64,000 bases of DNA, from NCBI RefSeq assembly GCF_054482595.1, contig NZ_CM137008.1. One strand, written 5' to 3'. How positions within the stretch are numbered: the stretch's first letter is position 1; every line of letters starts with the position of its first letter. Positions 16,017-64,000 of this stretch are shown here, one piece after another. A model generated the notes under the pieces. The model was not told where the DNA came from and made no database searches. It was given only the letters and a program-made list of their open reading frames with translations. The position numbers were made by a program, and so were the translations under genes.

Positions 16017-16061
16017 AAGACGAAGGCCCCGACCGATATTTCTATCAACCGAGGCCAACGA

Positions 16062-16072: not shown

Positions 16073-16269
<197 letters not shown>

Positions 16270-34133: not shown

Positions 34134-34170
34134 GCAATAAAAAACCGCAACCTGTATCAGCGTTGCGGTT
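34134..34170 (-). terminator. Intrinsic terminator downstream of ydbA
   Basis: 9-bp stem aaccgcaac/gttgcggtt with 10-nt loop, followed on minus strand by UUUUAUU; about 20 nt after ydbA stop. Confidence 0.5.
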
Positions 34171-40819: not shown

Positions 40820-40823
40820 CACC

Positions 40824-43645: not shown

Positions 43646-43852
43646 GGGTAGTTAATATCCTGATTTAGCGAAAAATTAAGCATTCAATACGGGTATTGTG
43701 GCATGTTTAACCGTTCAGTTGAAGGTTGCGCCTACACTAAGCATAGTTGTTGATGAATTTTTCAATATCGCCATAGCTTTCAATTATATTTGAAATTTTG
43801 TAAAATATTTTTAGTAGCTTAAATGTGATTCAACATCACTGGAGAAAGTCTT

Positions 43853-44842
43853 ATGAAACTCGCCGTTTATAGCACAAAACAGTACGACAAGAAGTACCTG
43901 CAACAGGTGAACGAGTCCTTTGGCTTTGAGCTGGAATTTTTTGACTTTCTGCTGACGGAAAAAACCGCTAAAACCGCCAATGGATGCGAAGCGGTATGTA
44001 TTTTCGTAAACGATGACGGAAGCCGCCCGGTGCTGGAAGAGCTGAAAAAGCACGGCGTTAAATATATCGCCCTGCGCTGTGCCGGTTTCAATAACGTCGA
44101 CCTTGACGCGGCAAAAGAACTGGGGCTGAAAGTAGTTCGTGTTCCAGCCTATGATCCAGAAGCCGTTGCTGAACACGCCATCGGTATGATGATGACGCTG
44201 AACCGCCGTATTCACCGCGCGTATCAGCGTACCCGTGACGCTAACTTCTCTCTGGAAGGTCTGACCGGCTTTACTATGTATGGCAAAACGGCAGGCGTTA
44301 TCGGTACCGGTAAAATCGGTGTGGCGATGCTGCGCATTCTGAAAGGTTTTGGTATGCGTCTGCTGGCGTTCGATCCGTATCCAAGTGCAGCGGCGCTGGA
44401 ACTCGGTGTGGAGTATGTCGATCTGCCAACCCTGTTCTCTGAATCAGACGTTATCTCTCTGCACTGCCCGCTGACACCGGAAAACTACCATCTGTTGAAC
44501 GAAGCCGCCTTTGATCAGATGAAAAATGGCGTGATGATCGTCAATACCAGTCGCGGTGCATTGATTGATTCTCAGGCGGCAATTGAAGCGCTGAAAAATC
44601 AGAAAATTGGTTCGTTGGGTATGGACGTCTATGAGAACGAACGCGATCTGTTCTTTGAAGATAAATCCAACGACGTGATCCAGGATGACGTATTCCGTCG
44701 CCTGTCTGCATGCCACAACGTGCTGTTTACCGGGCACCAGGCATTCCTGACAGCAGAAGCTCTGACCAGTATTTCTCAGACTACGCTGCAAAACTTAAGC
44801 AATCTGGAAAAAGGCGAAACCTGCCCGAACGAACTGGTTTAA
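43853..44842 (+). CDS. ldhA: Fermentative D-lactate dehydrogenase (NAD-dependent)
   Basis: 329-aa ORF MKLAVYSTKQYDKKYLQQVNE..., NAD-binding GVIGTGKIG. Confidence 0.95.
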   Translation: MKLAVYSTKQYDKKYLQQVNESFGFELEFFDFLLTEKTAKTANGCEAVCIFVNDDGSRPVLEELKKHGVKYIALRCAGFNNVDLDAAKELGLKVVRVPAYDPEAVAEHAIGMMMTLNRRIHRAYQRTRDANFSLEGLTGFTMYGKTAGVIGTGKIGVAMLRILKGFGMRLLAFDPYPSAAALELGVEYVDLPTLFSESDVISLHCPLTPENYHLLNEAAFDQMKNGVMIVNTSRGALIDSQAAIEALKNQKIGSLGMDVYENERDLFFEDKSNDVIQDDVFRRLSACHNVLFTGHQAFLTAEALTSISQTTLQNLSNLEKGETCPNELV

Positions 44843-44952
44843 TCTTGCCGCTCCCCTGCAATCCAGGGGAGCTGATTCAGATAATCCCCAATGACCTTTC
44901 ATCCTCTATTCTTAAAATAGTCCTGAGTCAGAAACTGTAATTGAGAACCACA

Positions 44953-45375
44953 ATGAAGAAAGTAGCCGCGTTTGTTGCGCTAAGCCTGCTGATGGCGGGA
45001 TGTGTAAGTAATGACAAAATTGCTGTAACGCCAGAACAGCTACAGCATCATCGCTTTGTGCTGGAAAGCGTAAACGGTAAGCCCGTGACCAGCGATAAAA
45101 ATCCGCCAGAAATCAGCTTTGGTGAAAAAATGATGATTTCCGGCAGCATGTGTAACCGCTTTAGCGGTGAAGGCAAACTGTCTAATGGTGAACTGACAGC
45201 CAAAGGGCTGGCAATGACCCGTATGATGTGCGCTAACCCGCAGCTTAATGAACTCGATAACACCATTAGCGAAATGCTGAAAGAAGGTGCACAAGTGGAT
45301 CTGACCGCGAACCAGTTAACGCTGGCGACCGCGAAACAGACATTAACTTATAAGCTGGCGGATTTAATGAATTAA
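44953..45375 (+). CDS. hslJ: Heat-shock lipoprotein HslJ
   Basis: Track ORF (TTG 44941) trimmed to ATG 44953 MKKVAAFVALSLLMAGCVSN... (140 aa). Confidence 0.85.
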   Translation: MKKVAAFVALSLLMAGCVSNDKIAVTPEQLQHHRFVLESVNGKPVTSDKNPPEISFGEKMMISGSMCNRFSGEGKLSNGELTAKGLAMTRMMCANPQLNELDNTISEMLKEGAQVDLTANQLTLATAKQTLTYKLADLMN

Positions 45376-45638
45376 TAGCTGCCACAGCTCCCGGCGGCAA
45401 GTGACTGTTCACTACAGCGTTTGCCGTTGGGTAATGCACACATCCCAATCGCCGTACCATCCAGTTGACGGGCAACAGAAAGCGAACCGCCGATCATTGC
45501 ACAATTTGCTTCTCCACTACTGGACATCGACGCTTTTAAACCTGGCGCTACGTGCGCCGCAGTCGCCTGCTGAACAGGCTCACTACTACACGCCGACAAC
45601 AATAAAGCGGCACCCCCTACCCAAAACGCTGCTCGCAT
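45372..45638 (-). CDS. ydbJ: DUF333-family lipoprotein YdbJ
   Basis: 88-aa ORF MRAAFWVGGAALLLSACSSEP...; 3' end overlaps hslJ 3' end by 4 nt. Confidence 0.8.
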   Translation of the reverse strand: MRAAFWVGGAALLLSACSSEPVQQATAAHVAPGLKASMSSSGEANCAMIGGSLSVARQLDGTAIGMCALPNGKRCSEQSLAAGSCGSY

Positions 45639-45911
45639 CTCTTCTTCCTCTAATCTTCAAGCCAAACGACACCGCCATAAATAATAGGCAGCACAGAGGG
45701 CGGCGTCGAGAGCTGTCCTGCGCGTTGCCCCGCATTTTTACTTTTTTTTGGCTATTTTTTTGCCCTCTGTTTGATCAAAACATTCATTACTCTGATGTGG
45801 GGGACACAAAAGCGAAAATGCAGAAGAAAGCCATTTGCTAAAATTGAAGGATTACTACTGGGCGCGCAGCAATTTCGTGCGCCCCTCATTTGCGCAATGT
45901 AAGGGTGTCAT

Positions 45912-48900
45912 ATGATTACTATTGACGGTAATGGCGCGGTTGCTTCGGTGGCGTTTCGCACCAGTGAAGTTATCGCCATCTACCCTATTACCCCCAGTTC
46001 CACGATGGCAGAACAGGCTGATGCCTGGGCCGGAAACGGCTTGAAGAACGTTTGGGGAGACACACCACGCGTGGTTGAAATGCAGTCGGAGGCGGGTGCT
46101 ATCGCTACCGTGCATGGCGCTTTGCAGACGGGTGCCCTTTCAACATCGTTTACGTCATCGCAGGGTTTGCTGCTGATGATCCCGACGCTGTACAAACTGG
46201 CAGGCGAACTCACACCGTTTGTCCTGCATGTAGCGGCACGTACCGTTGCCACACATGCACTTTCTATTTTTGGCGATCATTCCGACGTCATGGCGGTGCG
46301 CCAGACGGGTTGCGCGATGTTGTGTGCGGCAAACGTCCAGGAAGCGCAAGACTTTGCTCTCATTTCGCACATCGCGACGCTGAAAAGCCGCGTGCCATTT
46401 ATTCATTTCTTTGATGGTTTCCGTACGTCCCACGAAATCAACAAAATTGTCCCGCTGGCCGATGACACTATTCTTGATCTCATGCCGCAGGCCGAAATTG
46501 ATGCTCATCGCGCCCGGGCGCTCAACCCGGAACATCCGGTGATCCGCGGTACGTCAGCCAATCCTGACACTTATTTCCAGTCTCGCGAAGCCACCAACCC
46601 ATGGTACAACGCGGTCTATGACCATGTTGAACAGGCGATGAATGATTTCTCTGCCGCGACAGGTCGTCAGTATCAGCCGTTTGAATATTACGGGCATCCG
46701 CAAGCGGAACGGGTGATTATCCTGATGGGCTCTGCCATTGGCACCTGTGAAGAAGTGGTTGATGAATTGCTAACCCGTGGCGAAAAAGTTGGCGTGCTGA
46801 AAGTTCGCCTGTACCGTCCCTTCTCCGCCAAACACTTGCTGCAAGCTCTGCCGGGATCCGTACGCAGCGTGGCGGTACTGGACAGAACCAAAGAACCCGG
46901 TGCCCAGGCAGAACCGCTCTATCTGGATGTAATGACCGCACTGGCAGAAGCCTTTAATAATGGCGAGCGCGAAACTCTGCCCCGTGTCATTGGTGGGCGC
47001 TATGGTCTTTCATCCAAAGAATTTGGCCCGGACTGTGTACTGGCGGTATTTGCCGAGCTCAACGCGGCTAAACCGAAAGCGCGCTTTACGGTTGGTATTT
47101 ACGATGATGTGACCAATCTGTCACTGCCGTTGCCGGAAAACACCCTGCCAAACTCGGCGAAACTGGAAGCCTTGTTTTATGGCCTTGGTAGTGATGGCAG
47201 CGTTTCCGCGACCAAAAACAATATCAAGATTATCGGTAATTCCACGCCGTGGTACGCACAGGGTTATTTTGTTTACGACTCCAAAAAGGCGGGCGGCCTG
47301 ACGGTTTCTCACCTTCGCGTGAGCGAACAGCCGATTCGTTCCGCTTATCTCATTTCCCAGGCTGATTTTGTTGGCTGCCACCAGTTGCAGTTTATCGATA
47401 AATATCAGATGGCTGAGCGTTTAAAACCTGGCGGCATTTTCCTGCTTAATACGCCGTACAGCGCAGATGAAGTGTGGTCGCGCTTGCCGCAAGAAGTTCA
47501 GGCCGTGTTAAACCAGAAAAAAGCGCGCTTCTATGTAATTAACGCAGCGAAAATCGCCCGCGAATGTGGCCTGGCGGCCCGTATTAATACCGTCATGCAG
47601 ATGGCTTTTTTCCATCTGACGCAAATTCTGCCTGGCGATAGCGCCCTCGCAGAATTGCAGGGTGCGATTGCCAAAAGTTACAGTAGCAAAGGCCAGGATC
47701 TGGTGGAACGCAACTGGCAGGCTCTGGCGCTGGCGCGTGAATCCGTAGAAGAAGTTCCGTTGCAACCGGTAAATCCGCACAGCGCCAATCGACCGCCAGT
47801 GGTTTCCGATGCCGCCCCTGATTTCGTGAAAACCGTAACCGCGGCGATGCTCGCCGGGCTTGGTGATGCCCTCCCCGTTTCGGCGCTGCCGCCAGACGGC
47901 ACCTGGCCGATGGGCACCACTCGCTGGGAAAAACGCAATATCGCCGAAGAGATCCCCATCTGGAAAGAGGAACTCTGTACCCAATGTAACCACTGCGTCG
48001 CCGCTTGCCCACACTCAGCTATTCGCGCAAAAGTGGTACCGCCTGAAGCGATGGAAAACGCCCCTGCCAGCCTGCATTCGCTGGATGTGAAATCGCGTGA
48101 TATGCGCGGGCAGAAATATGTCTTGCAGGTGGCTCCAGAAGATTGCACCGGTTGTAACCTGTGCGTCGAAGTTTGCCCGGCGAAAGACCGTCAGAATCCA
48201 GAGATTAAAGCCATCAATATGATGTCGCGCCTGGAACATGTCGAAGAAGAGAAAATCAATTACGATTTCTTCCTCAACCTGCCAGAAATCGACCGTAGCA
48301 AACTGGAACGTATTGATATTCGTACATCGCAGCTGATTACACCACTGTTTGAATATTCCGGTGCTTGCTCCGGTTGTGGCGAGACGCCGTATATTAAATT
48401 GCTGACTCAGCTCTATGGCGACCGGATGTTGATCGCTAACGCCACCGGCTGTTCTTCAATTTATGGCGGTAACCTGCCCTCTACACCGTATACCACCGAT
48501 GCCAACGGTCGTGGGCCGGCATGGGCGAACTCTCTATTTGAAGATAATGCCGAATTTGGCCTTGGTTTCCGCCTGACGGTCGATCAACACCGTGTCCGCG
48601 TGCTGCGTCTGCTGGATCAATTTGCCGATAAAATCCCGGCGGAATTACTGACGGCGTTGAAATCAGACGCCACGCCAGAGGTTCGTCGTGAACAGGTTGC
48701 AGCTTTACGCCAGCAACTCAATGATGTTGCCGAAGCACATGAACTGCTGCGTGACGCAGATGCACTGGTGGAAAAATCAATCTGGCTGATTGGTGGCGAC
48801 GGCTGGGCTTACGATATCGGCTTTGGCGGTCTGGATCATGTATTGAGTTTGACGGAAAACGTCAACATTCTGGTGCTGGATACGCAATGCTATTCCAACA

Positions 48901-49436
48901 CCGGTGGTCAGGCGTCGAAAGCGACACCGCTGGGTGCAGTAACTAAATTTGGCGAGCACGGCAAACGTAAAGCGCGTAAAGATCTTGGCGTCAGTATGAT
49001 GATGTACGGTCATGTTTATGTGGCGCAGATTTCTCTCGGCGCGCAACTGAACCAGACGGTGAAAGCGATTCAGGAAGCGGAAGCGTATCCGGGACCATCG
49101 CTGATCATTGCTTATAGCCCGTGTGAAGAGCATGGTTACGATCTGGCACTCAGCCATGACCAGATGCGCCAACTCACAGCTACCGGCTTCTGGCCGCTAT
49201 ATCGCTTCGATCCGCGTCGTGCCGATGAAGGCAAACTGCCGCTGGCGCTGGATTCACGCCCGCCGTCAGAAGCACTGGAAGAAACGTTACTTCACGAGCA
49301 ACGTTTCCGTCGTCTGAATTCGCAGCAGCCAGAAGTGGCAGAACAGTTATGGAAAGATGCTGCAGCTGATTTGCAAAAACGCTATGACTTCCTGGCACAA
49401 ATGGCCGGAAAAGCGGAAAAAAGCAACACCGATTAA
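45912..49436 (+). CDS. ydbK: Pyruvate:flavodoxin/ferredoxin oxidoreductase (PFOR)
   Basis: 1174-aa ORF with two 4Fe-4S ferredoxin motifs (CTQCNHCVAACP, CTGCNLCVEVCP) and TPP-binding region. Confidence 0.95.
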   Translation: MITIDGNGAVASVAFRTSEVIAIYPITPSSTMAEQADAWAGNGLKNVWGDTPRVVEMQSEAGAIATVHGALQTGALSTSFTSSQGLLLMIPTLYKLAGELTPFVLHVAARTVATHALSIFGDHSDVMAVRQTGCAMLCAANVQEAQDFALISHIATLKSRVPFIHFFDGFRTSHEINKIVPLADDTILDLMPQAEIDAHRARALNPEHPVIRGTSANPDTYFQSREATNPWYNAVYDHVEQAMNDFSAATGRQYQPFEYYGHPQAERVIILMGSAIGTCEEVVDELLTRGEKVGVLKVRLYRPFSAKHLLQALPGSVRSVAVLDRTKEPGAQAEPLYLDVMTALAEAFNNGERETLPRVIGGRYGLSSKEFGPDCVLAVFAELNAAKPKARFTVGIYDDVTNLSLPLPENTLPNSAKLEALFYGLGSDGSVSATKNNIKIIGNSTPWYAQGYFVYDSKKAGGLTVSHLRVSEQPIRSAYLISQADFVGCHQLQFIDKYQMAERLKPGGIFLLNTPYSADEVWSRLPQEVQAVLNQKKARFYVINAAKIARECGLAARINTVMQMAFFHLTQILPGDSALAELQGAIAKSYSSKGQDLVERNWQALALARESVEEVPLQPVNPHSANRPPVVSDAAPDFVKTVTAAMLAGLGDALPVSALPPDGTWPMGTTRWEKRNIAEEIPIWKEELCTQCNHCVAACPHSAIRAKVVPPEAMENAPASLHSLDVKSRDMRGQKYVLQVAPEDCTGCNLCVEVCPAKDRQNPEIKAINMMSRLEHVEEEKINYDFFLNLPEIDRSKLERIDIRTSQLITPLFEYSGACSGCGETPYIKLLTQLYGDRMLIANATGCSSIYGGNLPSTPYTTDANGRGPAWANSLFEDNAEFGLGFRLTVDQHRVRVLRLLDQFADKIPAELLTALKSDATPEVRREQVAALRQQLNDVAEAHELLRDADALVEKSIWLIGGDGWAYDIGFGGLDHVLSLTENVNILVLDTQCYSNTGGQASKATPLGAVTKFGEHGKRKARKDLGVSMMMYGHVYVAQISLGAQLNQTVKAIQEAEAYPGPSLIIAYSPCEEHGYDLALSHDQMRQLTATGFWPLYRFDPRRADEGKLPLALDSRPPSEALEETLLHEQRFRRLNSQQPEVAEQLWKDAAADLQKRYDFLAQMAGKAEKSNTD

Positions 49437-49464
49437 ATGCTCTGGATAAGGATTATCCAATTCT

Positions 49465-49500
49465 AAAAAAAAGCCCGGACGACTGTTCGGGCTTGTCTTT
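49465..49500. terminator. Bidirectional intrinsic terminator shared by ydbK (+) and micC (-)
   Basis: Hairpin gcccggacgactgttcgggc flanked by A8 upstream and ttgtcttttt downstream. Confidence 0.6.
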
Positions 49501-49574
49501 TTATATGTTGGAAAATCAGTGGCAATGCAATGGCCCAACAGAAAATAAAATCTGTGACAATAAAGGCATATAAC
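49466..49574 (-). ncRNA. micC: MicC small RNA (porin-mRNA repressor)
   Basis: Minus strand reads GTTATATGCCTTTATTGTCACAGATTTTATTTTCTGTTGGGCCATTGCATTGCC...GCCCGAACAGTCGTCCGGGCTTTTTTT, matching MicC as I remember it; lies between ydbK and ompN. Confidence 0.8.
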
Positions 49575-49801
49575 CCGCGCAGAATAACGTATAGAAAATT
49601 AAAAGTATAATTTTTATTTTGTATGTATTATCTTCGATACATTCACCAGACTTATTATCATTTCAGAGGAATTATTTGATTAAGGTTTTACTTAAGGCGT
49701 AACAAATGATATTTATCAGCTAACTGAACTTCTCCTTTAGGATGTTTTCACTCCCCGAAATGGGGATAAAAGGCAAATAAAATAACTAAAGGATTTATTC
49801 A

Positions 49802-50935
49802 ATGAAAAGCAAAGTACTGGCACTTTTAATTCCTGCCCTGCTCGCCGCAGGTGCTGCACATGCAGCCGAAGTTTATAATAAAGACGGCAACAAATTAGAT
49901 CTGTATGGCAAAGTTGATGGCCTGCATTATTTTTCTGATAATTCAGCGAAAGATGGCGACCAGAGCTATGCGCGTCTGGGTTTTAAAGGCGAAACCCAAA
50001 TTAACGATCAACTTACTGGCTACGGTCAATGGGAATACAATATTCAGGCAAACAACACTGAATCTTCAAAAAACCAGTCATGGACCCGTCTGGCATTTGC
50101 CGGACTGAAATTTGCAGATTACGGTTCTTTCGATTACGGACGTAATTATGGCGTAATGTACGACATCGAAGGCTGGACCGATATGCTGCCTGAATTTGGC
50201 GGTGACTCTTATACCAATGCAGACAACTTTATGACTGGTCGAGCCAATGGCGTCGCGACTTATCGTAATACTGATTTCTTCGGTCTGGTAAATGGTCTGA
50301 ACTTCGCGGTGCAGTATCAAGGTAACAACGAAGGAGCCAGTAATGGTCAGGAAGGCACCAACAACGGACGTGATGTTCGCCATGAAAACGGTGACGGCTG
50401 GGGTCTTTCCACAACATATGATTTAGGCATGGGCTTTAGCGCTGGTGCGGCATACACATCTTCTGACCGCACCAATGACCAGGTTAACCATACTGCGGCG
50501 GGTGGTGATAAAGCAGACGCGTGGACTGCTGGGCTAAAATACGATGCTAACAATATTTACCTGGCAACCATGTATTCAGAAACGCGTAATATGACCCCGT
50601 TTGGCGACAGCGATTATGCTGTTGCAAACAAAACCCAGAACTTTGAAGTCACTGCACAGTACCAGTTTGATTTTGGTCTGCGTCCGGCAGTCTCTTTCCT
50701 GATGTCTAAAGGCCGTGACCTGCACGCTGCCGGTGGTGCAGACAACCCGGCAGGTGTTGATGATAAAGATCTGGTTAAATACGCCGATGTTGGCGCGACT
50801 TACTATTTCAATAAAAACATGTCCACCTATGTTGACTATAAAATCAACCTGTTGGATGAAGATGACAGTTTCTACGCTGCCAACGGCATCTCTACCGATG
50901 ATATTGTCGCTTTAGGTCTGGTTTATCAGTTCTAA
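49802..50935 (+). CDS. ompN: Outer membrane porin OmpN (OmpC/F family)
   Basis: 377-aa ORF with signal peptide [21 protein letters not shown] and C-terminal ...GLVYQF. Confidence 0.9.
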
Positions 50936-50943
50936 ATCCTCCT

Positions 50944-50967
50944 GCCCGCTGTTATGGCGGGCTTTTT
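50944..50967 (+). terminator. Intrinsic terminator of ompN
   Basis: gcccgc-tgttatg-gcgggc followed by T5, 9 nt after stop. Confidence 0.6.
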
Positions 50968-50994
50968 CTGCTTATTCTTCCTCCTTTGATCTAA

Positions 50995-51510
<516 letters not shown>

Positions 51511-51517
51511 CACTAAC

Positions 51518-51542
51518 GCCCGCACATTGCTGCGGGCTTTTT
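51518..51542 (+). terminator. Intrinsic terminator of uspF
   Basis: gcccgca-cattgc-tgcgggc followed by T5. Confidence 0.6.
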
Positions 51543-51685
51543 GATTCATTTCGCAAATGTGCTGACATTTTCCCCTCTAATCCGTACCATACACGCCACA
51601 GTTTTTATATCAGATTTCTTATGCTGGGCGTTCCGGCATGACGCATACTCTTCTGATGCCATATAACGAATTGAGTCGCTTTTAA

Positions 51686-52621
51686 ATGTCGCAAAATCAA
51701 GAAATTAGCAAGAAAGAACAATACAACCTGAACAAATTACAAAAACGCCTGCGTCGTAACGTGGGCGAAGCCATTGCTGACTTCAATATGATTGAAGAAG
51801 GCGATCGCATCATGGTTTGCCTCTCCGGGGGTAAAGACAGCTATACCATGCTGGAGATTCTGCGCAATTTGCAGCAAAGCGCGCCAATCAATTTTTCGCT
51901 GGTGGCTGTTAACCTCGATCAAAAGCAACCGGGCTTCCCGGAACACGTTCTGCCCGAGTATCTTGAAAAGCTGGGCGTTGAGTACAAGATTGTTGAAGAG
52001 AACACTTACGGTATCGTGAAAGAGAAGATTCCAGAGGGCAAAACCACTTGCTCACTGTGTTCTCGGCTACGTCGCGGTATCCTTTATCGCACCGCAACGG
52101 AACTGGGGGCGACGAAGATCGCGTTGGGCCACCATCGTGACGATATCCTGCAAACGTTGTTCTTAAATATGTTCTACGGCGGCAAGATGAAAGGTATGCC
52201 TCCGAAACTGATGAGCGATGATGGCAAACATATTGTTATTCGTCCGCTGGCCTACTGCCGCGAGAAAGATATTCAGCGATTTGCCGATGCAAAAGCGTTC
52301 CCGATTATTCCGTGCAACCTGTGCGGTTCACAGCCTAACCTGCAACGTCAGGTGATTGCTGACATGTTGCGTGACTGGGATAAACGTTATCCAGGGCGTA
52401 TCGAGACGATGTTCAGCGCGATGCAGAATGTGGTGCCGTCACATCTGTGCGATACCAACCTGTTCGATTTCAAAGGCATCACCCACGGTTCTGAAGTGGT
52501 TAACGGGGGTGATCTGGCGTTTGATCGCGAAGAGATCCCACTACAACCGGCGGGCTGGCAGCCAGAAGAAGATGAAAATCAGTTGGATGAGTTACGGCTG
52601 AATGTGGTTGAAGTGAAATAA
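51686..52621 (+). CDS. ttcA: tRNA 2-thiocytidine(32) synthetase TtcA, full length
   Basis: 311-aa ORF with PP-loop SGGKDS and CxxC pairs. Confidence 0.95.
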
Positions 52622-52631
52622 CCAGGATAGC

Positions 52632-52701
52632 GCCCGATGCGCAAGCGTATCGGGCTACTCTTATGGAGGCCGGATAAGACGCGGCCAGCGTCGCATCCGG
52701 C
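52632..52701. repeat. REP/BIME-like element (two palindromic units) between ttcA and dbpA
   Basis: gcccgatgcgcaagcgtatcgggc and gccggataagacgcggccagcgtcgcatccggc, typical REP palindromic units. Confidence 0.6.
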
Positions 52702-52749
52702 AATCCCGAATAAGATGTTTACTCTTGCACCCGGCAATTCAACATTTCA

Positions 52750-54123
52750 TTATTTTAATAACCGCACCCGGCACGTTTTTCCTTTAATCTTCCCGCCCTG
52801 TAACTGTTTCCATGCTTTATGAGCAACAGCCTGACGGACCGCGACATAGACATGCGCCGGATGCACGGCGATTTTGCCTATATCTGCGCCATCAAGCCCG
52901 ATATCTCCTGTCAGTGCACCTAATACATCACCCGGGCGCATTTTGGCTTTTTTCCCGCCATCGATACACAACGTTGCCATTTCTGCTTCCAGCGTCACAA
53001 TGGAACTATTAGCTGGCGGCGTTTGCCAGTTAAGTTTTATCTGCAACATGTCAGAAATGATATTGGCCCGCTGTGCTTCTTCCGGAGCACAGAAACTGAT
53101 CGCCAGACCGCTATTTCCTGCACGAGCTGTACGACCGATGCGATGTACATGAACTTCAGGGTCCCACGCCAGCTCAAAGTTCACCACCAGCTCAAGCGAT
53201 TTAATATCCAGACCACGCGCAGCAACATCAGTCGCGACCAGTACACGGGCGCTACCGTTAGCAAAACGTACCAGGGTCTGATCGCGATCGCGTTGCTCCA
53301 AATCGCCGTGTAATGACAATGCACTTTGCCCTACTTCATTCAGCGCGTCGCAGACAGCCTGGCAATCTTTTTTGGTATTGCAAAACACCACGCAAGAGGA
53401 TGGCTGATGCAAGCTTAATAACCGTTGCAACAGAGGAATTTTGCCTTTACTGGATGTCTCATAAAATTGTTGTTCAATGGGTGGCAAAGCATCTGTTGAG
53501 TCAATTTCAATCGCCAAAGGATCGCGTTGCACTCGTCCGCTGATTGCGGCGATGGCTTCCGGCCAGGTTGCCGAAAACAGAAGCGTCTGTCGAGATGCAG
53601 GCGCAAAACGGATGACATCATCAATGGCATCGCTAAATCCCATATCCAGCATGCGGTCGGCCTCATCCATCACCAAAGTATTCAGCGCATCCAGTGATAC
53701 CGTGCCTTTTTGCAGGTGATCCAGCAAACGGCCCGGCGTTGCCACGATAATATGCGGCGCATGTTGCAACGAATCACGCTGCATACCGAACGGTTGACCA
53801 CCGCACAACGTCAAAATTTTGGTATTTGGCAGAAAACGCGCCAGCCGACGCAATTCACCTGCCACCTGATCCGCCAGTTCACGCGTAGGACACAGCACTA
53901 AAGCCTGGGTTTGAAATAGCGACGCATCAATTTGCTGTAACAAGCCGAGGCCAAAAGCCGCCGTTTTGCCGCTGCCAGTTTTCGCCTGCACGCGAACATC
54001 TTTTCCGGCAAGGATCGCCGGAAGCGCGGCGGCCTGCACCGGCGTCATGGTTAAATAACCCAACTCATTAAGGTTCGTGAGTTGGGCGGGAGGCAAAACA
54101 TTCAGGGTAGAAAAAGCGGTCAC
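52750..54123 (-). CDS. dbpA: ATP-dependent 23S rRNA-specific DEAD-box RNA helicase DbpA (GTG start)
   Basis: 457-aa ORF with Walker A AKTGSGKTAAF and DEAD motif VMDEADRMLD. Confidence 0.95.
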   Translation of the reverse strand: MTAFSTLNVLPPAQLTNLNELGYLTMTPVQAAALPAILAGKDVRVQAKTGSGKTAAFGLGLLQQIDASLFQTQALVLCPTRELADQVAGELRRLARFLPNTKILTLCGGQPFGMQRDSLQHAPHIIVATPGRLLDHLQKGTVSLDALNTLVMDEADRMLDMGFSDAIDDVIRFAPASRQTLLFSATWPEAIAAISGRVQRDPLAIEIDSTDALPPIEQQFYETSSKGKIPLLQRLLSLHQPSSCVVFCNTKKDCQAVCDALNEVGQSALSLHGDLEQRDRDQTLVRFANGSARVLVATDVAARGLDIKSLELVVNFELAWDPEVHVHRIGRTARAGNSGLAISFCAPEEAQRANIISDMLQIKLNWQTPPANSSIVTLEAEMATLCIDGGKKAKMRPGDVLGALTGDIGLDGADIGKIAVHPAHVYVAVRQAVAHKAWKQLQGGKIKGKTCRVRLLK

Positions 54124-54155
54124 AATCTATTCTCGTGGTCATCGACGCAAAGTCA

Positions 54156-54326
54156 TCAGGCGCGTATCCTCGCAGATCTACGCTCACGATGCGACAATTT
54201 AATCGGTTCTTCATCGGGTGGTGGGTCAGGCATGGGTTGCGGGCGAGGGATCGGATCGGGCACTGGAACAGGATCGCCAGGAATCGGTTCAGGGACAGGA
54301 ATTTGCAAATAAATAAGTATCGTCAT
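54156..54326 (-). CDS. Hypothetical proline-rich small protein (56 aa) immediately upstream of dbpA; not in ORF track
   Basis: ATG at 54326 preceded by GGAGGG 5 nt upstream; MTILIYLQIPVPEPIPGDPVPVPDPIPRPQPMPDPPPDEEPIKLSHRERRSARIRA; stop 32 nt before dbpA start. Confidence 0.3.
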   Translation of the reverse strand: MTILIYLQIPVPEPIPGDPVPVPDPIPRPQPMPDPPPDEEPIKLSHRERRSARIRA

Positions 54327-54382
54327 ATTTCCCTCCGGTCATTGGGTGGACTCTTAAAGGGTAGACGCTGATAAATAACAGG

Positions 54383-54505
54383 CAAAAAAAAGCCGACTCA
54401 TCAAAGTCGGCGTCGTACGAATCAATTGTGCTATGCAGTAATTCAAAAAAGGAAGTAAGACAATATGGAGCGCAACGCCCATCGCTTGACGTTGCATTCA
54501 CCTGC
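54383..54505 (-). ncRNA. fnrS: FnrS small RNA (FNR-activated)
   Basis: Minus strand reads GCAGGTGAATGCAACGTCAAGCGATGGGCGTTGCGCTCC...GCCGACTTTGATGAGTCGGCTTTTTTTT, matching FnrS as I remember it; terminator hairpin 54392-54411 plus U8. Confidence 0.8.
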
Positions 54506-54540
54506 AAGAGAGATATTGCCCTGAATGGGTAGAGAGTTTA

Positions 54541-54554
54541 TTGACTTCGCTCAA
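54541..54554 (-). promoter_or_regulatory. Candidate FNR binding site centred about -41.5 of fnrS
   Basis: Minus strand TTGAGCGAAGTCAA (consensus TTGAT-N4-ATCAA, 2 mismatches) 35 nt upstream of candidate -10 CAATAT. Confidence 0.55.
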
Positions 54555-54600
54555 ACTTTGCGGCGTTTTTGTATACAGACAGCCGGAAAAATTGCTTTTG

Positions 54601-55605
<1,005 letters not shown>

Positions 55606-55838
55606 TTATTTTGTAGTCTAGCCTTCTGGCCCTGTTACGCAACATCTCATCACCCCATTACCCTGAAATGATTAATAAAATTCTGTCTAAATTGAATACA
55701 AAAAGCAAAATGCTTTTCCGTATACAAACCGTGTGAAGTGTTAAATAGCGTCTATCATTATCAGAATTATCTGATCATATGACGTGGCTTTTTTGCGATC
55801 GGATAGCAACAAAAATTGATAAAAATAATGGGATCTCA

Positions 55839-57071
55839 ATGATTACGCACAACTTCAATACCCTGGACTTACTCACCAGTCCTGTCTGGATCGTTTCGCC
55901 CTTTGAGGAACAGTTAATTTATGCCAATAGCGCGGCGCGACTGTTGATGCAAGACCTCACGTTTAGTCAGCTACGAACCGGTCCCTATTCCGTCTCCTCA
56001 CAAAAAGAACTGCCGAAATACCTCTCCGATCTGCAAAACCAACACGATATTATCGAAATCCTCACTGTTCAGCGTAAAGAAGAGGAAACAGCATTAAGCT
56101 GTCGGCTTGTTTTGCGAGAGCTGACAGAAACAGAACCGGTGATTATTTTCGAAGGTATCGAAGCGCCGGCAACGCTGGGTTTAAAAGCCAGTCGCTCAGC
56201 AAATTATCAGCGCAAAAAACAAGGTTTTTATGCGCGCTTTTTTCTGACTAACTCTGCACCAATGTTGTTGATTGACCCGTCACGAGATGGCCAAATCGTC
56301 GATGCTAACCTCGCCGCGCTCAATTTCTATGGTTATAACCATGAAACGATGTGCCAGAAACATACCTGGGAAATAAATATGCTCGGGCGTCGCGTCATGC
56401 CTATCATGCATGAAATTTCGCATTTACCCGGCGGTCATAAACCTTTGAATTTTGTTCATAAACTGGCGGATGGATCTACTCGTCATGTGCAGACCTATGC
56501 CGGACCGATTGAAATTTATGGCGACAAGCTCATGTTATGTATTGTGCATGATATTACTGAGCAAAAACGGCTGGAGGAGCAGCTGGAACATGCTGCTCAC
56601 CATGACGCGATGACCGGATTACTGAATCGGCGACAGTTTTATCACATTACGGAACCAGGCCAAATGCAGCATCTCGCCATCGCTCAGGATTACAGCTTGT
56701 TGCTCATCGACACCGATCGTTTTAAACACATTAACGATCTCTATGGGCATTCTAAAGGTGATGAGGTGTTATGCGCCCTCGCCCGCACCCTCGAAAGTTG
56801 CGCTCGCAAAGGCGATTTGGTGTTTCGTTGGGGAGGCGAAGAGTTTGTCTTATTGCTACCAAGAACCCCACTGGATACCGCGCTTTCGCTGGCTGAAACT
56901 ATCCGCGTAAGCGTGGCAAAAGTGAGTATTTCGGGCTTACCACGCTTTACCGTCAGCATTGGTGTGGCGCATCACGAAGGAAATGAAAGCATCGATGAAC
57001 TGTTTAAACGCGTTGATGATGCTTTGTATCGGGCGAAAAATGATGGACGCAACCGCGTGCTGGCGGCATAA
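55839..57071 (+). CDS. dgcM: Diguanylate cyclase DgcM (PAS-PAS-GGDEF)
   Basis: Track ORF trimmed to MITHNFNTLDLLTSPVW... (410 aa); GGEEF active-site motif (RWGGEEFVLLL). Confidence 0.85.
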   Translation: MITHNFNTLDLLTSPVWIVSPFEEQLIYANSAARLLMQDLTFSQLRTGPYSVSSQKELPKYLSDLQNQHDIIEILTVQRKEEETALSCRLVLRELTETEPVIIFEGIEAPATLGLKASRSANYQRKKQGFYARFFLTNSAPMLLIDPSRDGQIVDANLAALNFYGYNHETMCQKHTWEINMLGRRVMPIMHEISHLPGGHKPLNFVHKLADGSTRHVQTYAGPIEIYGDKLMLCIVHDITEQKRLEEQLEHAAHHDAMTGLLNRRQFYHITEPGQMQHLAIAQDYSLLLIDTDRFKHINDLYGHSKGDEVLCALARTLESCARKGDLVFRWGGEEFVLLLPRTPLDTALSLAETIRVSVAKVSISGLPRFTVSIGVAHHEGNESIDELFKRVDDALYRAKNDGRNRVLAA

Positions 57072-57091
57072 GCCGCGGATGCGTCTCGAGA

Positions 57092-57655
57092 TCAACGACT
57101 GCGCTTAGCGTGGCGCTCCCAGTTTTCTTGCTTCGCCTGCGCCGTTTTACGTAGTGCGACGTAACACGCCCCGCTGCCGCCATGATGCGGTAGCGCGGTG
57201 CAATATGCCTGAACATCATCAAATTCGGTCAGCCAGCGCGCCACATAGCTGCGGACAATATTGGCATGCGATTTATCATCCCGCCCTTTACCATGAATAA
57301 TCAGCACGTTACGCAAACCATCCGCCAGGGCTTGTTGAATAAAACTGAACACCATTTTGCGGCACTCTTCCACCGGCTGGCGCAAAAGATTCAGGCTCGC
57401 CTGTTGCGGATATTTACCACTGCGCAGCTTATCCAGCACCCCATGTTGCAACCCTTCCCGCCGAAACTCCAGCGGCTGACTTAGTGGGATAATGTCGAGA
57501 AATCCGGTAGTGAGGAAATTATCAAGCTGCAGCGTGTCGATACGCTGTGGCGCACGTTGGTTACGCGTGGGATGCCAGTGGACATCGGTAGCACGTTTCA
57601 GCGGCTGGACATCTTCCATGGCGTCAAGAAACAGCGATTTGTCGTCAAGGTTCAT
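57092..57655 (-). CDS. smrA: Smr-domain DNA endonuclease SmrA
   Basis: 187-aa ORF with C-terminal Smr domain. Confidence 0.85.
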   Translation of the reverse strand: MNLDDKSLFLDAMEDVQPLKRATDVHWHPTRNQRAPQRIDTLQLDNFLTTGFLDIIPLSQPLEFRREGLQHGVLDKLRSGKYPQQASLNLLRQPVEECRKMVFSFIQQALADGLRNVLIIHGKGRDDKSHANIVRSYVARWLTEFDDVQAYCTALPHHGGSGACYVALRKTAQAKQENWERHAKRSR

Positions 57656-57881
57656 GTTACATCCTCCCGCAATTAAGAGCGCGATATGATAACCAGACCG
57701 GGTCGGTCCAACAACGTATTACCCAAAATTCCAGTAATAAGTTCCAAATGTTGCCGATATTTTAAGCAAAATGCTTATGCATGATTATTCATTCACGATA
57801 TTAATAATGTAACTTATATTTTCGTGAAATCTGTCACTGAAGAAAATTGGCAACTAAAGGTTAAAACCGTTATAACACAGT

Positions 57882-57976
57882 CACCGGCGCAGAGGAGACA
57901 ATGCCGGATTTAAGACGCGGATGCACTGCTGTGTGTACTATAGAGTCTGGCGGATGTCGACAGACTCTATTTTTTT
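57882..57976 (+). ncRNA. mcaS: McaS (IsrA) small RNA
   Basis: sigma70-like promoter TTGGCA-N18-TATAAC (57846-57875), transcript ACCGGCGCAGAGGAGACAATGCCGG...TAGAGTCTGGCGGATGTCGACAGACTCTA plus T7; matches McaS as I remember it. Confidence 0.75.
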
Positions 57977-57984
57977 ATGCAGTT

Positions 57985-58893
57985 TTAACTTTGCAGATAG
58001 CCGCATTCTCGCCGGAATTGCGTGATTAATGACGCGGTCAGTGGTGTCTGGCGACTATCACGCCGCTGAATCAAATAATAGGCCGCTTTCGGTAAAATTT
58101 CGCTAACCGGCAACATCACCAGCCCCTGTCCGTGCAAGGGATCGCAGCCCATTTCTTCAGGCAGTATGCTGAGAAAATCGCTTTTTGCCACCAGACTGAT
58201 ACAGGCTGAGAACGTCTCGCAGACTACACCGACCTGTGGCGTTTGCGCCTGATCGTCAAGCAATTCACTCAACTGTTTGTAGTAGCTGCCGTGTGGCGTC
58301 GGCATTGTCCAGCTGTAATCCAGTAACTGTTTGATCGAACGGGCACCAATGGCGGGGTGTCCCGGGCGGCAAAAGATCGCGAATTGCTTTTCCAGTAATT
58401 TCTCAAAAGTAAATTCGTGGTCGTACGATCCCTGATAATAGGTATTGATGGTGAAATCCAATTCTCCCTGACGCAATTCATTAATCATCGACACCAGTTG
58501 CCCTTCCATAATGCGTACTTTTACCTGCGGATGCTGCTGATGAAAACGAGATATGACAGCTGGCATCAGACTGCGGGAAATACTGGCCCCCATGCCGATA
58601 TTAATCTGCCCTGCCAGTTGCCCTTGTCGTTGGCGAATATCCTCTTGGGCTGCGCGCAGCTCTTCAAGAATAAGACTGGCGTGCTGATAAAAACTTTCAC
58701 CGGCATCAGTTAACGTCACGCCTTTACTACGGCGAAAAAAGAGTTGCGCCGCTAACCCTTCTTCCAGCTCCTGAATAGATTTACTCAGTGCCGGTTGCGA
58801 CATATTCAACATTCGGCTCGCTCCGCGAATGCTGCCCTGACGAGCCACTTCAACAAAAGCCCGAATTTGATGAATTTTTACCTGAAAAGCCAT
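57985..58893 (-). CDS. abgR: LysR-family regulator AbgR
   Basis: 302-aa ORF with N-terminal HTH (GSIRGASRMLNMSQPALSKSIQELE). Confidence 0.9.
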   Translation of the reverse strand: MAFQVKIHQIRAFVEVARQGSIRGASRMLNMSQPALSKSIQELEEGLAAQLFFRRSKGVTLTDAGESFYQHASLILEELRAAQEDIRQRQGQLAGQINIGMGASISRSLMPAVISRFHQQHPQVKVRIMEGQLVSMINELRQGELDFTINTYYQGSYDHEFTFEKLLEKQFAIFCRPGHPAIGARSIKQLLDYSWTMPTPHGSYYKQLSELLDDQAQTPQVGVVCETFSACISLVAKSDFLSILPEEMGCDPLHGQGLVMLPVSEILPKAAYYLIQRRDSRQTPLTASLITQFRRECGYLQS

Positions 58894-59068
58894 GACGCCA
58901 CCGATAACCGTTATTTATCAGACCAAAGAAACTGGCATCTACTTTAATGCAGATGATTGTGTCAGGGTAATTTATGAACGGTTAAAACTGTGAAAAATCA
59001 GTTAGTGATAAGTAAAAACTATCGCTACGTGAACCGGGTCACACTTTTTACTGATGACGGGAAAGGTT

Positions 59069-60379
59069 ATGGAGTATTTGAATCAATTTGTTAATTCGCT
59101 TGCCCCAAAATTATCGCACTGGCGACGTGATTTTCATCACTATGCAGAGTCTGGCTGGGTGGAATTCCGCACTGCCACCCTTGTTGCGGAAGAATTGCAG
59201 CAGCTCGGCTATTCACTGGCGCTGGGCCGCGAAGTAGTTAATGAAAGTAGCCGGATGGGACTACCTGATGAACTCACTCTACAACGCGAATTCGAGCGCG
59301 CTCGTCAACAGGGTGCGCTAGCACAATGGATTGCGGCTTTTGAAGGTGGTTTCACTGGTATCGTCGCCACCCTGGATACCGGTCGCCCCGGTCCGGTGAT
59401 GGCTTTCCGTGTCGATATGGACGCGCTGGATCTCAGTGAAGAGCAGGATGTCAGCCATCGCCCCTACCGCGACGGTTTTGTGTCATGTAACGCCGGAATG
59501 ATGCATGCCTGTGGTCATGATGGGCATACCGCCATTGGGCTTGGGCTGGCGCATACCCTTAAACAGTTCGAGTCCGGACTACATGGCATCATCAAACTGA
59601 TTTTTCAACCTGCAGAAGAAGGTACGCGTGGCGCGCGGGCGATGGTCGATGCAGGTGTAGTGGATGATGTTGATTATTTTACTGCCGTGCACATTGGCAC
59701 TGGCGTACCTGCGGGCACCGTGGTGTGCGGCAGTGATAATTTTATGGCAACCACCAAATTTGACGCGCACTTCACCGGGACCGCCGCTCACGCAGGCGCA
59801 AAACCAGAAGACGGTCACAATGCCTTGTTGGCGGCAGCACAAGCAACTCTTGCACTGCATGCAATCGCCCCGCACAGCGAAGGCGCTTCCAGAGTAAACG
59901 TGGGCGTTATGCAGGCAGGAAGCGGTCGTAATGTTGTTCCTGCCTCGGCGTTGCTGAAAGTGGAAACACGCGGGGCCAGCGACGTCATTAATCAATATGT
60001 TTTTGACCGTGCACAACAAGCGATTCAGGGCGCAGCAACCATGTATGGTGTCGGCGTTGAAATTCGTCTGATGGGTGCAGCTACCGCCAGTTCTCCTTCG
60101 CCGCAATGGGTCGCATGGTTGCAAAGTCAGGCGGCTCAGGTCGCGAGGGTCAATCAGGCCATTGAACGTGTCGAAGCGCCTGCGGGTTCCGAAGATGCCA
60201 CATTAATGATGGCCCGCGTGCAGCAACATCAAGGGCAAGCCTCCTACATGGTGTTTGGCACACAGCTGGCGGCAGGTCATCACAACGAAAAATTCGATTT
60301 TGACGAGCAGGTTCTCGCTATTGCCGTCGAAACGCTGGCGCGCACCGCGCTCAATTTTCCCTGGACGCGAGGTATCTGA
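59069..60379 (+). CDS. abgA: p-Aminobenzoyl-glutamate hydrolase subunit A (M20 peptidase family)
   Basis: Track ORF trimmed to MEYLNQFVNSLAPKLSHWRRDFHH... (436 aa). Confidence 0.85.
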   Translation: MEYLNQFVNSLAPKLSHWRRDFHHYAESGWVEFRTATLVAEELQQLGYSLALGREVVNESSRMGLPDELTLQREFERARQQGALAQWIAAFEGGFTGIVATLDTGRPGPVMAFRVDMDALDLSEEQDVSHRPYRDGFVSCNAGMMHACGHDGHTAIGLGLAHTLKQFESGLHGIIKLIFQPAEEGTRGARAMVDAGVVDDVDYFTAVHIGTGVPAGTVVCGSDNFMATTKFDAHFTGTAAHAGAKPEDGHNALLAAAQATLALHAIAPHSEGASRVNVGVMQAGSGRNVVPASALLKVETRGASDVINQYVFDRAQQAIQGAATMYGVGVEIRLMGAATASSPSPQWVAWLQSQAAQVARVNQAIERVEAPAGSEDATLMMARVQQHQGQASYMVFGTQLAAGHHNEKFDFDEQVLAIAVETLARTALNFPWTRGI

Positions 60380-61824
60380 TGCAGGAAATCTATCGTTTTA
60401 TCGACGATGCGATTGAAGCCGATCGCCAACGTTATACCGATATTGCCGATCAAATCTTGGATCATCCAGAAACACGTTTTGAAGAGTTCTGGTCAGCGGA
60501 GCATCTGGCTTCGGCGCTGGAATCTGCAGGCTTCACCGTTACCCGCAACGTAGGCAATATCCCAAATGCCTTTATTGCTTCGTTTGGTCAAGGCAAACCG
60601 GTTATCGCCCTGCTGGGAGAATATGACGCCCTGGCAGGTTTAAGTCAGCAAGCAGGTTGCGCGCAACCTACATCCGCGACGCCCGGTGAAAATGGTCACG
60701 GTTGCGGACACAATTTGCTGGGAACCGCCGCCTTTGCCGCTGCAATAACCGTCAAGAAATGGCTGGAACAATATGGGCAAGGCGGCACGGTGCGCTTTTA
60801 TGGTTGTCCTGGCGAAGAAGGCGGCTCGGGTAAAACGTTCATGGTTCGCGAGGGGGTATTTGATGATGTGGATGCGGCACTCACCTGGCACCCGGAAGCC
60901 TTTGCCGGTATGTTCAATACCCGCACGCTGGCAAACATTCAGGCATCATGGCGCTTTAAAGGGATCGCAGCACATGCCGCGAATTCCCCTCATTTGGGAC
61001 GCAGCGCCCTTGATGCCGTAACGTTGATGACCACTGGCACCAACTTCCTCAACGAACATATTATTGAAAAAGCGCGCGTACACTATGCCATCACAAATAG
61101 CGGCGGGATCTCGCCCAACGTGGTCCAGGCGCAGGCAGAAGTGCTTTATCTTATCCGCGCCCCCGAAATGACCGACGTGCAGCATATTTATGATCGGGTC
61201 GCCAAAATCGCCGAAGGTGCGGCATTGATGACCGAAACCACGGTTGAATGCCGCTTCGACAAAGCCTGTTCCAGTTATCTCCCGAATCGCACCTTAGAAA
61301 ATGCCATGTACCAGGCCCTATCCCATTTTGGTACCCCGGAATGGAACTCCGAAGAACTGGCTTTTGCGAGACAAATTCAGGCTACGCTCACCTCCAACGA
61401 TCGGCAAAACAGTCTGAATAATATCGCCGCAACCGGTGGCGAAAACGGCAAGGTTTTTGCACTACGTCATCGTGAAACGGTACTGGCGAATGAGGTCGCT
61501 CCATATGCCGCCACCGATAACGTGCTTGCGGCATCGACTGATGTCGGCGACGTCAGTTGGAAACTGCCTGTTGCCCAGTGTTTCAGCCCCTGTTTTGCCG
61601 TCGGTACACCGCTACATACGTGGCAACTGGTTAGCCAGGGGCGAACATCTATTGCTCATAAAGGAATGCTGCTGGCGGCGAAAACTATGGCAGCAACCAC
61701 AGTCAATCTCTTCATTGATTCAGGGCTATTGCAAGAATGCCAACAAGAGCATCAGCAAGTTACGGACACGCAACCGTATCACTGCCCTATCCCGAAAAAC
61801 GTGACACCGTCACCTTTAAAATAA
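60379..61824 (+). CDS. abgB: p-Aminobenzoyl-glutamate hydrolase subunit B (M20 peptidase family)
   Basis: 481-aa ORF; start overlaps abgA stop. Confidence 0.9.
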   Translation: MQEIYRFIDDAIEADRQRYTDIADQILDHPETRFEEFWSAEHLASALESAGFTVTRNVGNIPNAFIASFGQGKPVIALLGEYDALAGLSQQAGCAQPTSATPGENGHGCGHNLLGTAAFAAAITVKKWLEQYGQGGTVRFYGCPGEEGGSGKTFMVREGVFDDVDAALTWHPEAFAGMFNTRTLANIQASWRFKGIAAHAANSPHLGRSALDAVTLMTTGTNFLNEHIIEKARVHYAITNSGGISPNVVQAQAEVLYLIRAPEMTDVQHIYDRVAKIAEGAALMTETTVECRFDKACSSYLPNRTLENAMYQALSHFGTPEWNSEELAFARQIQATLTSNDRQNSLNNIAATGGENGKVFALRHRETVLANEVAPYAATDNVLAASTDVGDVSWKLPVAQCFSPCFAVGTPLHTWQLVSQGRTSIAHKGMLLAAKTMAATTVNLFIDSGLLQECQQEHQQVTDTQPYHCPIPKNVTPSPLK

Positions 61825-61857
61825 CAACAACGCAAACACAACAACCGAGGAATGCCC

Positions 61858-63384
61858 ATGAGTATGTCATCCATACCGTCGTCCTCCCAATCCGGGAAGC
61901 TCTATGGCTGGGTCGAAAGAATTGGTAACAAGGTTCCCCATCCTTTTTTGCTCTTTATCTATTTGATAATCGTACTCATGGTGACGACGGCAATTTTGTC
62001 AGCCTTTGGCGTCAGTGCGAAAAACCCGACCGATGGTACGCCGGTGGTGGTGAAAAACCTGCTCAGTGTGGAAGGATTACACTGGTTTTTACCCAATGTG
62101 ATTAAAAACTTTAGCGGTTTTGCTCCACTTGGAGCGATCCTGGCGCTGGTTTTAGGTGCCGGCCTAGCGGAGCGCGTCGGCTTACTGCCAGCGCTAATGG
62201 TTAAAATGGCATCGCATGTTAATGCCCGCTACGCCAGTTATATGGTGCTGTTTATTGCTTTTTTCAGCCACATTTCTTCCGATGCGGCGTTAGTGATCAT
62301 GCCACCGATGGGTGCGCTGATTTTTCTGGCGGTGGGCAGGCATCCAGTTGCAGGTTTACTGGCCGCCATTGCAGGCGTAGGTTGCGGCTTCACGGCTAAT
62401 TTACTGATTGTCACAACCGACGTGTTGCTGTCGGGGATCAGCACGGAAGCGGCGGCTGCGTTCAATCCGCAAATGCACGTCAGTGTAATTGATAACTGGT
62501 ATTTTATGGCCAGCTCCGTAGTCGTACTGACGATTGTTGGCGGCCTGATAACCGACAAAATCATCGAGCCACGGTTAGGTCAATGGCAGGGAAACAGCGA
62601 TGAGAAACTGCAGACATTGACCGAAAGTCAGCGTTTTGGTTTACGCATAGCAGGTGTCGTATCGCTACTTTTTATTGCTGCGATCGCGCTGATGGTGATC
62701 CCGGAAAACGGGATATTGCGCGATCCGATTAATCACACCGTGATGCCATCACCCTTTATTAAAGGTATCGTGCCACTGATCATTCTTTTTTTCTTTGTTG
62801 TCTCGCTGGCTTATGGCATCGCTACCCGCACAATTCGACGTCAGGCGGATTTACCGCATTTAATGATTGAACCGATGAAAGAGATGGCGGGATTTATCGT
62901 GATGGTTTTTCCCCTAGCCCAGTTTGTCGCCATGTTTAACTGGAGCAACATGGGGAAATTCATCGCCGTGGGGCTGACCGATATACTTGAAAGTTCAGGG
63001 CTTAGCGGCATCCCGGCGTTTGTCGGTCTGGCGTTGCTTTCCTCTTTCTTATGCATGTTTATTGCCAGCGGTTCCGCAATCTGGTCGATTCTGGCCCCCA
63101 TTTTCGTACCAATGTTTATGCTACTTGGCTTTCACCCGGCATTTGCGCAAATCCTCTTTCGTATTGCCGACTCATCCGTATTGCCTTTAGCGCCGGTATC
63201 TCCTTTTGTTCCACTGTTTCTTGGATTCCTGCAACGCTACAAACCAGACGCGAAACTGGGTACTTACTATTCGTTAGTCTTGCCCTATCCGCTTATCTTT
63301 TTGGTGGTATGGCTGCTGATGTTGCTGGCGTGGTATCTTGTCGGTCTGCCGATAGGTCCGGGTATTTACCCACGTTTGTCTTAA
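61858..63384 (+). CDS. abgT: p-Aminobenzoyl-glutamate transporter AbgT
   Basis: Track ORF trimmed to [30 protein letters not shown]... (508 aa), polytopic. Confidence 0.85.
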
Positions 63385-63394
63385 GAGAGAACGG

Positions 63395-63910
63395 ATGCTG
63401 AGATTACTTGAAGAAAAAATTGCCACGCCACTGGGTCCACTGTGGGTGATTTGCGATGAGCAATTTCGCCTGCGGGCGGTTGAATGGGAAGAGTACAGCG
63501 AACGCATGGTGCAGCTGCTGGACATCCATTATCGCAAAGAAGGCTATGAGCGCATTTCTGCCACCAACCCAGGTGGTTTAAGCGACAAGCTTCGTGAATA
63601 TTTTGCCGGTAATCTTAGCATTATTGATACGCTTCCCACTGCCACGGGGGGGACGCCATTTCAGCGCGAAGTCTGGAAAACACTGCGCACTATCCCCTGC
63701 GGGCAGGTAATGCATTATGGCCAACTGGCTGAACAATTAGGCCGCCCTGGCGCGGCGCGTGCCGTTGGTGCGGCAAACGGATCGAATCCCATCAGCATCG
63801 TCGTACCTTGCCATCGGGTTATTGGCCGAAACGGCACCATGACCGGATATGCAGGCGGAGTTCAGCGAAAAGAGTGGTTATTGCGCCACGAAGGTTATCT
63901 TTTGCTGTAA
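63395..63910 (+). CDS. ogt: O6-methylguanine-DNA methyltransferase
   Basis: 171-aa ORF with active-site PCHRV motif ([10 protein letters not shown]). Confidence 0.9.
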
Positions 63911-64000
63911 ACATTAAACAATTTGTGCCAGCTTGTTCACACTTTTATGTAAAGTTACCCTTAACAACTTAAGGGTTTTCAAATAGATAGACATATATTT

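Follow-up and report, generated by a model that had tools for sequence, protein, structure and literature searches.

The closest known counterpart of the locus analyzed here is the attachment site of the prophage Rac in Escherichia coli K-12. As described by Liu et al. (2015, Sci Rep 5:16074; PMC4632033), Rac is located between ttcA and ttcC', with attL inside the ttcA coding region, and its integration and excision are attributed to IntR and XisR (YdaQ). The same account reports that excision alters four residues near the N terminus of TtcA; this form, TtcA', occurs in excised K-12 and in natural strains that lack any Rac-like prophage, is regarded by those authors as the ancient form, and lowers the tolerance of carbenicillin stress relative to TtcA. 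Strain CFT073 is presented there as an exception, carrying the lysogen-type N terminus but no Rac-like prophage in ttcA. In the RefSeq annotation of K-12 MG1655, the gene order is dbpA, ttcA, Rac (from intR to ynaE), ttcC' and uspF, with dbpA on the plus strand and ttcA, ttcC', uspF and the more distal ompN on the minus strand. The ttcA gene spans 1411013 to 1411948, with its start codon at 1411948, the cryptic prophage spans 1411899 to 1434958 (intR, xisR, rcbA, ralR, recT, recE through pinR and ynaE), and the 51-nt pseudogene ttcC (ttcC') spans 1434958 to 1435008. The boundary of Rac therefore falls 50 nt into the ttcA coding sequence, and, since ttcA is encoded on the minus strand, it is the start-codon end of the gene that touches the prophage. 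Rac is thus flanked by uspF and by the start of ttcA, and dbpA is found on the other side of ttcA.

The DNA analyzed here (the window) is a stretch of 64,000 nucleotides from contig NZ_CM137008.1 and represents E. coli chromosome. Between positions 31000 and 64000, it differs at only 4 of 33,001 bases from XH990 (NZ_CP019359.1), a strain isolated in China from urine, and gene names and coordinates were taken from the annotation of this near-identical strain (locus coordinate + 30999). On the plus strand, ydbK/nifJ (45912-49436), ompN (49802-50935) and uspF (51076-51510; collinear with K-12 uspF) precede ttcA (51686-52621), which encodes tRNA cytosine-32 2-sulfurtransferase. Comparison with K-12 and the XH990 annotation both agree with the open reading frame that ttcA is full length, with 311 codons and a product identical to K-12 TtcA at 306 of 311 residues. 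It is followed by the convergent gene dbpA (52750-54123, minus strand), an open reading frame of 457 codons annotated as an ATP-dependent RNA helicase in both K-12 and XH990. The uspF gene is the bacterial gene across the Rac site from ttcA, and in K-12 it adjoins ttcC' and attR. Downstream of uspF, a consensus scan detected a terminator-like hairpin that leads into a T run (51518-51537, plus strand); this putative terminator has a 7-pair stem with 6 GC pairs, followed by TTTTTGATTC. Alignment with K-12 attR defines the 175-bp uspF-ttcA spacer (51511-51685, plus strand) as the native upstream region of ttcA. The consensus scan found one weak promoter-like site in this spacer, at 51562-51590; its role as a promoter is putative, as is the place assigned to the native promoter of ttcA. 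No RNA family was found by an Rfam scan of positions 51500 to 52800. Elsewhere in the window, Rfam gathering scores were exceeded by the small RNAs FnrS (54388-54505, minus strand), MicC (49457-49577, minus strand), McaS (57883-57978, plus strand) and RydC (16685-16748, plus strand), and by the sok antitoxin of hokB/mokB/sokB (15974-16125, plus strand), whose hok/sok locus (16016-16269) is 100% identical to that of K-12.

Next, the window was compared with K-12 by blast. Two blocks were obtained, in which window positions 40495-51735 correspond to K-12 1446201-1434959 and window positions 51693-64000 correspond to K-12 1411941-1399631, with Rac missing between them. As seen, the two blocks overlap by 43 bp at window positions 51693-51735, and this stretch, which matches Rac positions 1 to 43, represents the extended attB region. 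In K-12 each end of Rac carries a copy of it, the two copies forming an imperfect duplication (93% identical), and a three-way alignment showed that the duplication reaches back approximately to the ttcA start codon. Inside it lies a perfect core of 26 bp, AAGAAAGAACAATACAACCTGAACAA (51710-51735), which falls within ttcA codons 9 to 17 and has the same sequence in the window as in both attL and attR of K-12. The same 26-bp core characterizes the attB of Rac and of the Rac-like prophages CP-933R, Sp10 and Rac-SA53 treated by Liu et al.; in the record of phage Rac-SA53 (KU052037), the annotated 26-bp attP (722-747) aligns to 51710-51735 with 23 of 26 bases identical. On these alignments, the true attB for Rac is the 5' end of ttcA, at 51693-51735, and its core at 51710-51735 is the predicted substrate of IntR. 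The original prediction had assigned the site to the 3' end of ttcA and the junction with dbpA (52600-52750). Its choice of gene and its statement that Rac is absent from the locus hold, and its placement at the 3' end does not; comparison of that junction with K-12 and with the whole Rac gave no attB core there, and the actual core was found approximately 900 bases upstream.

We also evaluated the state of the site. In the three-way alignment, the window consists of the left, bacterial half of attR, the shared core and the right, bacterial half of attL. The gap of 175 bp between uspF and ttcA contains no inserted DNA, and positions 51600-51735 differ from the bacterial side of K-12 attR only by an extra T in a T run and a synonymous base at 51709. 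The diagnostic mismatch positions between 51689 and 51709 are all of the bacterial (ttcC') type, and neither a hybrid att pattern nor a prophage scar was detected by alignment at the true attB. In agreement, comparison of the whole K-12 Rac with the 64-kb window by blastn and tblastx returned only the 43-bp att overlap at 51693-51735; no integrase, xisR, other Rac gene or phage-type attL was found in the window, which bears out the earlier claim that integrase and phage genes are absent here. The spacer DNA downstream of uspF, which in K-12 is parted from ttcA by the 23-kb Rac, is contiguous with ttcA in the window. As nothing interrupts the stretch from uspF through the native upstream region into the native 5' end of ttcA, the encoded TtcA is of the ancestral or excised form, starting with MSQNQEIS, compared with MQENQQIT in K-12 (residues 2, 3, 6 and 8 differ). 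Beyond these four att-derived residues, the two proteins differ only at residue 290 (window position 52553), which is Gly in the window and Cys in K-12. K-12 delta-rac and natural nonlysogens have the same flanks (uspF and the body of ttcA) and the same MSQNQEIS, and the window differs from them in nothing of substance. To judge by these comparisons, the Rac attB of the window is intact and empty.

To place this state among other strains, contiguity of the locus was counted in complete E. coli genomes. The order uspF-ttcA-dbpA was contiguous in 2,487 of 5,426 genomes (46%). The remaining genomes, approximately 54%, were not contiguous, and among the rows sampled the break fell at window positions 51693-51698. 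A K-12-type intR was found directly upstream of ttcA in 1,835 genomes, and a further class, CFT073 included, had only a partial intR match; in all, approximately 1,100 of the 5,426 genomes were neither contiguous nor equipped with a full K-12-type intR. The CFT073 locus (NZ_CP058222.1; extracted locus 7031-9290) carries a decayed remnant of 2.26 kb between uspF and ttcA, comprising the C-terminal part of an integrase together with a phage-type attL and a TtcA that begins with MQENQQIT, and it lacks DNA equivalent to window positions 51583-51692. This remnant, with its phage-type ttcA 5' end, explains why CFT073 appeared as an exception in the study by Liu et al. CFT073 and the window share the locus and the att core; however, none of the CFT073 features (2.26 kb of phage DNA, an integrase fragment, a phage-type attL, MQENQQIT or the deletion) is present in the window.

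Overall, we consider that the Rac attB of the window is located at the 5' end of ttcA, is intact and empty, and was either never lysogenized or precisely excised rather than decayed, and that the ttcA-dbpA spacer is ordinary; we assign this reading a probability of approximately 0.95. In the proposed mechanism, the tyrosine recombinase IntR of the phage would recombine the attB core at 51710-51735 with the matching attP core, the exact point of strand exchange presumably lying within the 26 bp. The phage brings along the first 50 nt of ttcA in a copy of its own, so that integration restores an intact ttcA in which four N-terminal residues are changed (MQENQQIT), and the original 5' end of ttcA is left beside uspF as the 51-nt pseudogene ttcC'. 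In a lysogen, ttcA would probably be transcribed from phage DNA, since the native upstream region is then 23 kb away. The position of the core within codons 9 to 17, the phage-borne 5' end of ttcA, the displaced ttcC' and the change of four residues in TtcA were all seen by sequence comparison. The lineage, therefore, may never have had a Rac-like prophage at this site, or may have lost one by precise Int/Xis excision and not by decay, in keeping with the earlier description of the strain as naive for Rac or cured of it: the attB is intact, unoccupied and bacterial in type throughout.

Of these two histories, the one in which a former Rac-like lysogen was cured by precise IntR/XisR excision, with regeneration of both attB and the TtcA' N terminus, is the less expected, and we regard it as an unlikely but serious possibility. 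Rac excision is precise in the description given by Liu et al. and yields exactly this sequence, so that sequence alone cannot separate a site that was never lysogenized from one that was excised. A K-12 delta-rac locus built in silico differed from the window at 13 positions between 51400 and 52900, and in the att region only the synonymous position 51709 and position 51748 differed. Rac-like prophages are also very common at this site, as the proportion of interrupted genomes indicates. On the other hand, an event that leaves no footprint offers no positive evidence for itself, and the uniformly bacterial type of the diagnostic positions, without any hybrid, speaks against curing. Moreover, every one of the 14 genomes that match the window exactly over 51000-53000 has an empty site as well, and any loss was thus not very recent; the view of TtcA' as the ancient form, expressed by Liu et al., points the same way. 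We infer that the site was more probably empty from the outset, or lost its prophage long ago, than cured recently. A step in divergence from K-12 at att, a possible mark of a recombination breakpoint tied to the prophage, was also sought, and none was found, with approximately 0 to 11 differences in each 500 bp to either side.

The reduced identity of the left blast block stems entirely from positions 40495-41494, next to where the paa cluster is missing. This segment of 1 kb, which includes ydbL and ynbE, has 167 differences from K-12 (78 to 82% identity), compared with a divergence of approximately 1 to 2% elsewhere. The adjoining K-12 segment, 1446202-1472160 (26 kb; feaRB, tynA, the paa operon and, carrying IS2 and IS30 insertions, the 5' portion of ydbA), is absent from the window. 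In its place are 4.4 kb (36053-40494) that complete an intact ydbA-type autotransporter gene, an open reading frame of 1,977 codons (34191-40124, minus strand) containing a 30-nt tandem repeat present in 12.8 copies (39399-39779). The divergence of ydbL and ynbE suggests an allelic replacement that may have arrived together with the paa-region indel. A copy of IS609 (insQ/TnpB type) at 3281-5028 occupies the same position in K-12 with 99.2% identity and is, therefore, shared and not strain specific.

A degraded prophage remnant that still occupies the locus and was overlooked is hardly credible. Such cases do exist, as in CFT073, and approximately 1,100 genomes are neither contiguous nor equipped with a full K-12-type intR; nevertheless, the DNA of the 175-bp gap aligns collinearly with K-12 attR on its bacterial side, no Rac similarity was returned by blastn or tblastx, and the TtcA N terminus is of the nonlysogen type. 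For the window, an overlooked remnant is ruled out by the att alignment, the Rac blast comparison and the delta-rac reconstruction; the closer alignment proposed in the original prediction likewise revealed no remnant in the window.

The remaining alternative concerns the other end of ttcA, where an intergenic region of 128 bp (52622-52749) separates the stop codons of ttcA and dbpA and contains two imperfect palindromes. Palindrome 1 (52632-52655, plus strand), identified by palindrome search and folding, has arms of 11 nt that are 91% complementary and is a REP-like palindrome of variant form, GCCCGATGCGC..GCGTATCGGGC followed by TAC. Palindrome 2 (52669-52701, minus strand), identified by the same two approaches and by pattern match, has arms of 14 nt that are 86% complementary and is inverted relative to palindrome 1; its minus strand reproduces exactly the canonical REP pattern GCCGGATGCGACGCTGGCCGCGTCTTATCCGGC, which had 0 matches in 100 shuffles. 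Folding of the spacer yielded two strong hairpins (-53.7 kcal/mol; z = -5.1 relative to shuffled versions). Palindrome 2 thus has the properties of a REP element, being an imperfect palindrome that matches the consensus and is extragenic, and palindrome 1, with its TAC tail facing palindrome 2 across 13 nt, is a variant REP. One more exact REP half-site occurs in the window, at 34122-34135. When 2 mismatches were allowed, 5 half-sites were found in the 64-kb window compared with 2.35 expected, which is no excess over chance, and the assignment to the REP family is accordingly based on the full-length, exact match. E. coli REP/BIME elements resemble 52669-52701 in their exact pattern, extragenic position between convergent genes and inverted pairing, whereas palindrome 1 (GCCCGAT...) departs from the strict consensus. 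Together, the two palindromes appear to form a BIME-like pair between convergent genes, as the original prediction had noticed along with the full-length ttcA and the convergent dbpA, and as RNA hairpins they might stabilize or terminate the ttcA and dbpA transcripts.

The proposal that this junction is itself the Rac attB, with the REP pair marking an empty site, deserves virtually no credence: the placement of Rac next to ttcA holds as far as the gene is concerned, but K-12, a Rac lysogen, is 100% identical to the window across 52560-52800, the annotated ends of Rac are the ttcA 5' end and ttcC', attL lies in ttcA's N-terminal coding region in the description by Liu et al., and a search of 52600-52750 with the whole K-12 Rac by blastn and tblastx gave no similarity. 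Furthermore, the ttcA-dbpA junction is uninterrupted in 5,388 of 5,426 complete E. coli genomes (99.3%; 611-bp probe), compared with a 5' site that is split in approximately 54%. The K-12 annotation, the att alignment and the identity across 52560-52800 rule the junction out as attB; in K-12, the Rac site is elsewhere. Identity with a lysogen and near-universal contiguity mean that the junction carries no information on Rac. The ttcA-dbpA spacer is an ordinary conserved junction of convergent genes across E. coli and is unrelated to prophage integration. As a separate observation, the junction was not contiguous in 38 of the 5,426 genomes; in strain CY34 (NZ_CM181225.1), the match to the junction probe stops at probe position 119, approximately window position 52498, within ttcA.

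The original prediction had also held that the absence of Rac removes the recET, kilR and ralR functions, and this was addressed with a chimeric probe made of window positions 51000-53000 and the K-12 segments rcbA-ralR-recT and ydaE-kilR. The probe was run by megablast, counting the places matched per genome record; it did not include recE, homologues below approximately 85% identity would escape it, and chromosome records were counted with plasmids separate. XH990 and the 13 other genomes that show full identity with the window over 51000-53000 each gave one place, the window part, with no megablast match to rcbA-ralR-recT or ydaE-kilR. Other genomes gave up to 8 places with the same probe, which served as an internal positive control. 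These results from 14 close relatives indirectly suggest that the lineage would lack near-identical chromosomal copies of rcbA-ralR-recT and ydaE-kilR; the claimed loss is supported to this extent for recT, kilR and ralR, with recE outside the probe. In at least one genome, that of strain FDAARGOS_943 (NZ_CP065615.1), the ttcA site is empty and yet a second match to the recT/ralR/kilR probe occurs elsewhere on the chromosome, and an empty attB alone is therefore no proof that Rac-like genes are absent.

As described above, an empty Rac site is ordinary and already known biology. The empty state is common, being found in approximately 46% of complete E. coli genomes, and its anatomy, with attB inside the 5' part of the ttcA coding sequence, four altered residues in TtcA and the pseudogene ttcC', was described in 2015 (PMC4632033). 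What changes is the position of the site: Rac abuts the start of ttcA and not its end, and the REP-containing spacer thus says nothing about lysogeny. It is rather improbable, and somewhat more so than curing as such, that this clinical lineage, a near relative of XH990, shed a Rac-like prophage through precise excision and that TtcA', together with the loss of recET, kilR and ralR, alters its behavior, for example through lower carbenicillin tolerance; if true, this would be one more case of a published phenomenon. The comparison provides a simple rule for reading the locus: a TtcA beginning with MSQNQEIS and a uspF located 175 bp upstream indicate an empty or precisely excised site, and a TtcA beginning with MQENQQIT, if an integrase or a fragment of one lies upstream, indicates an occupied or decayed one.
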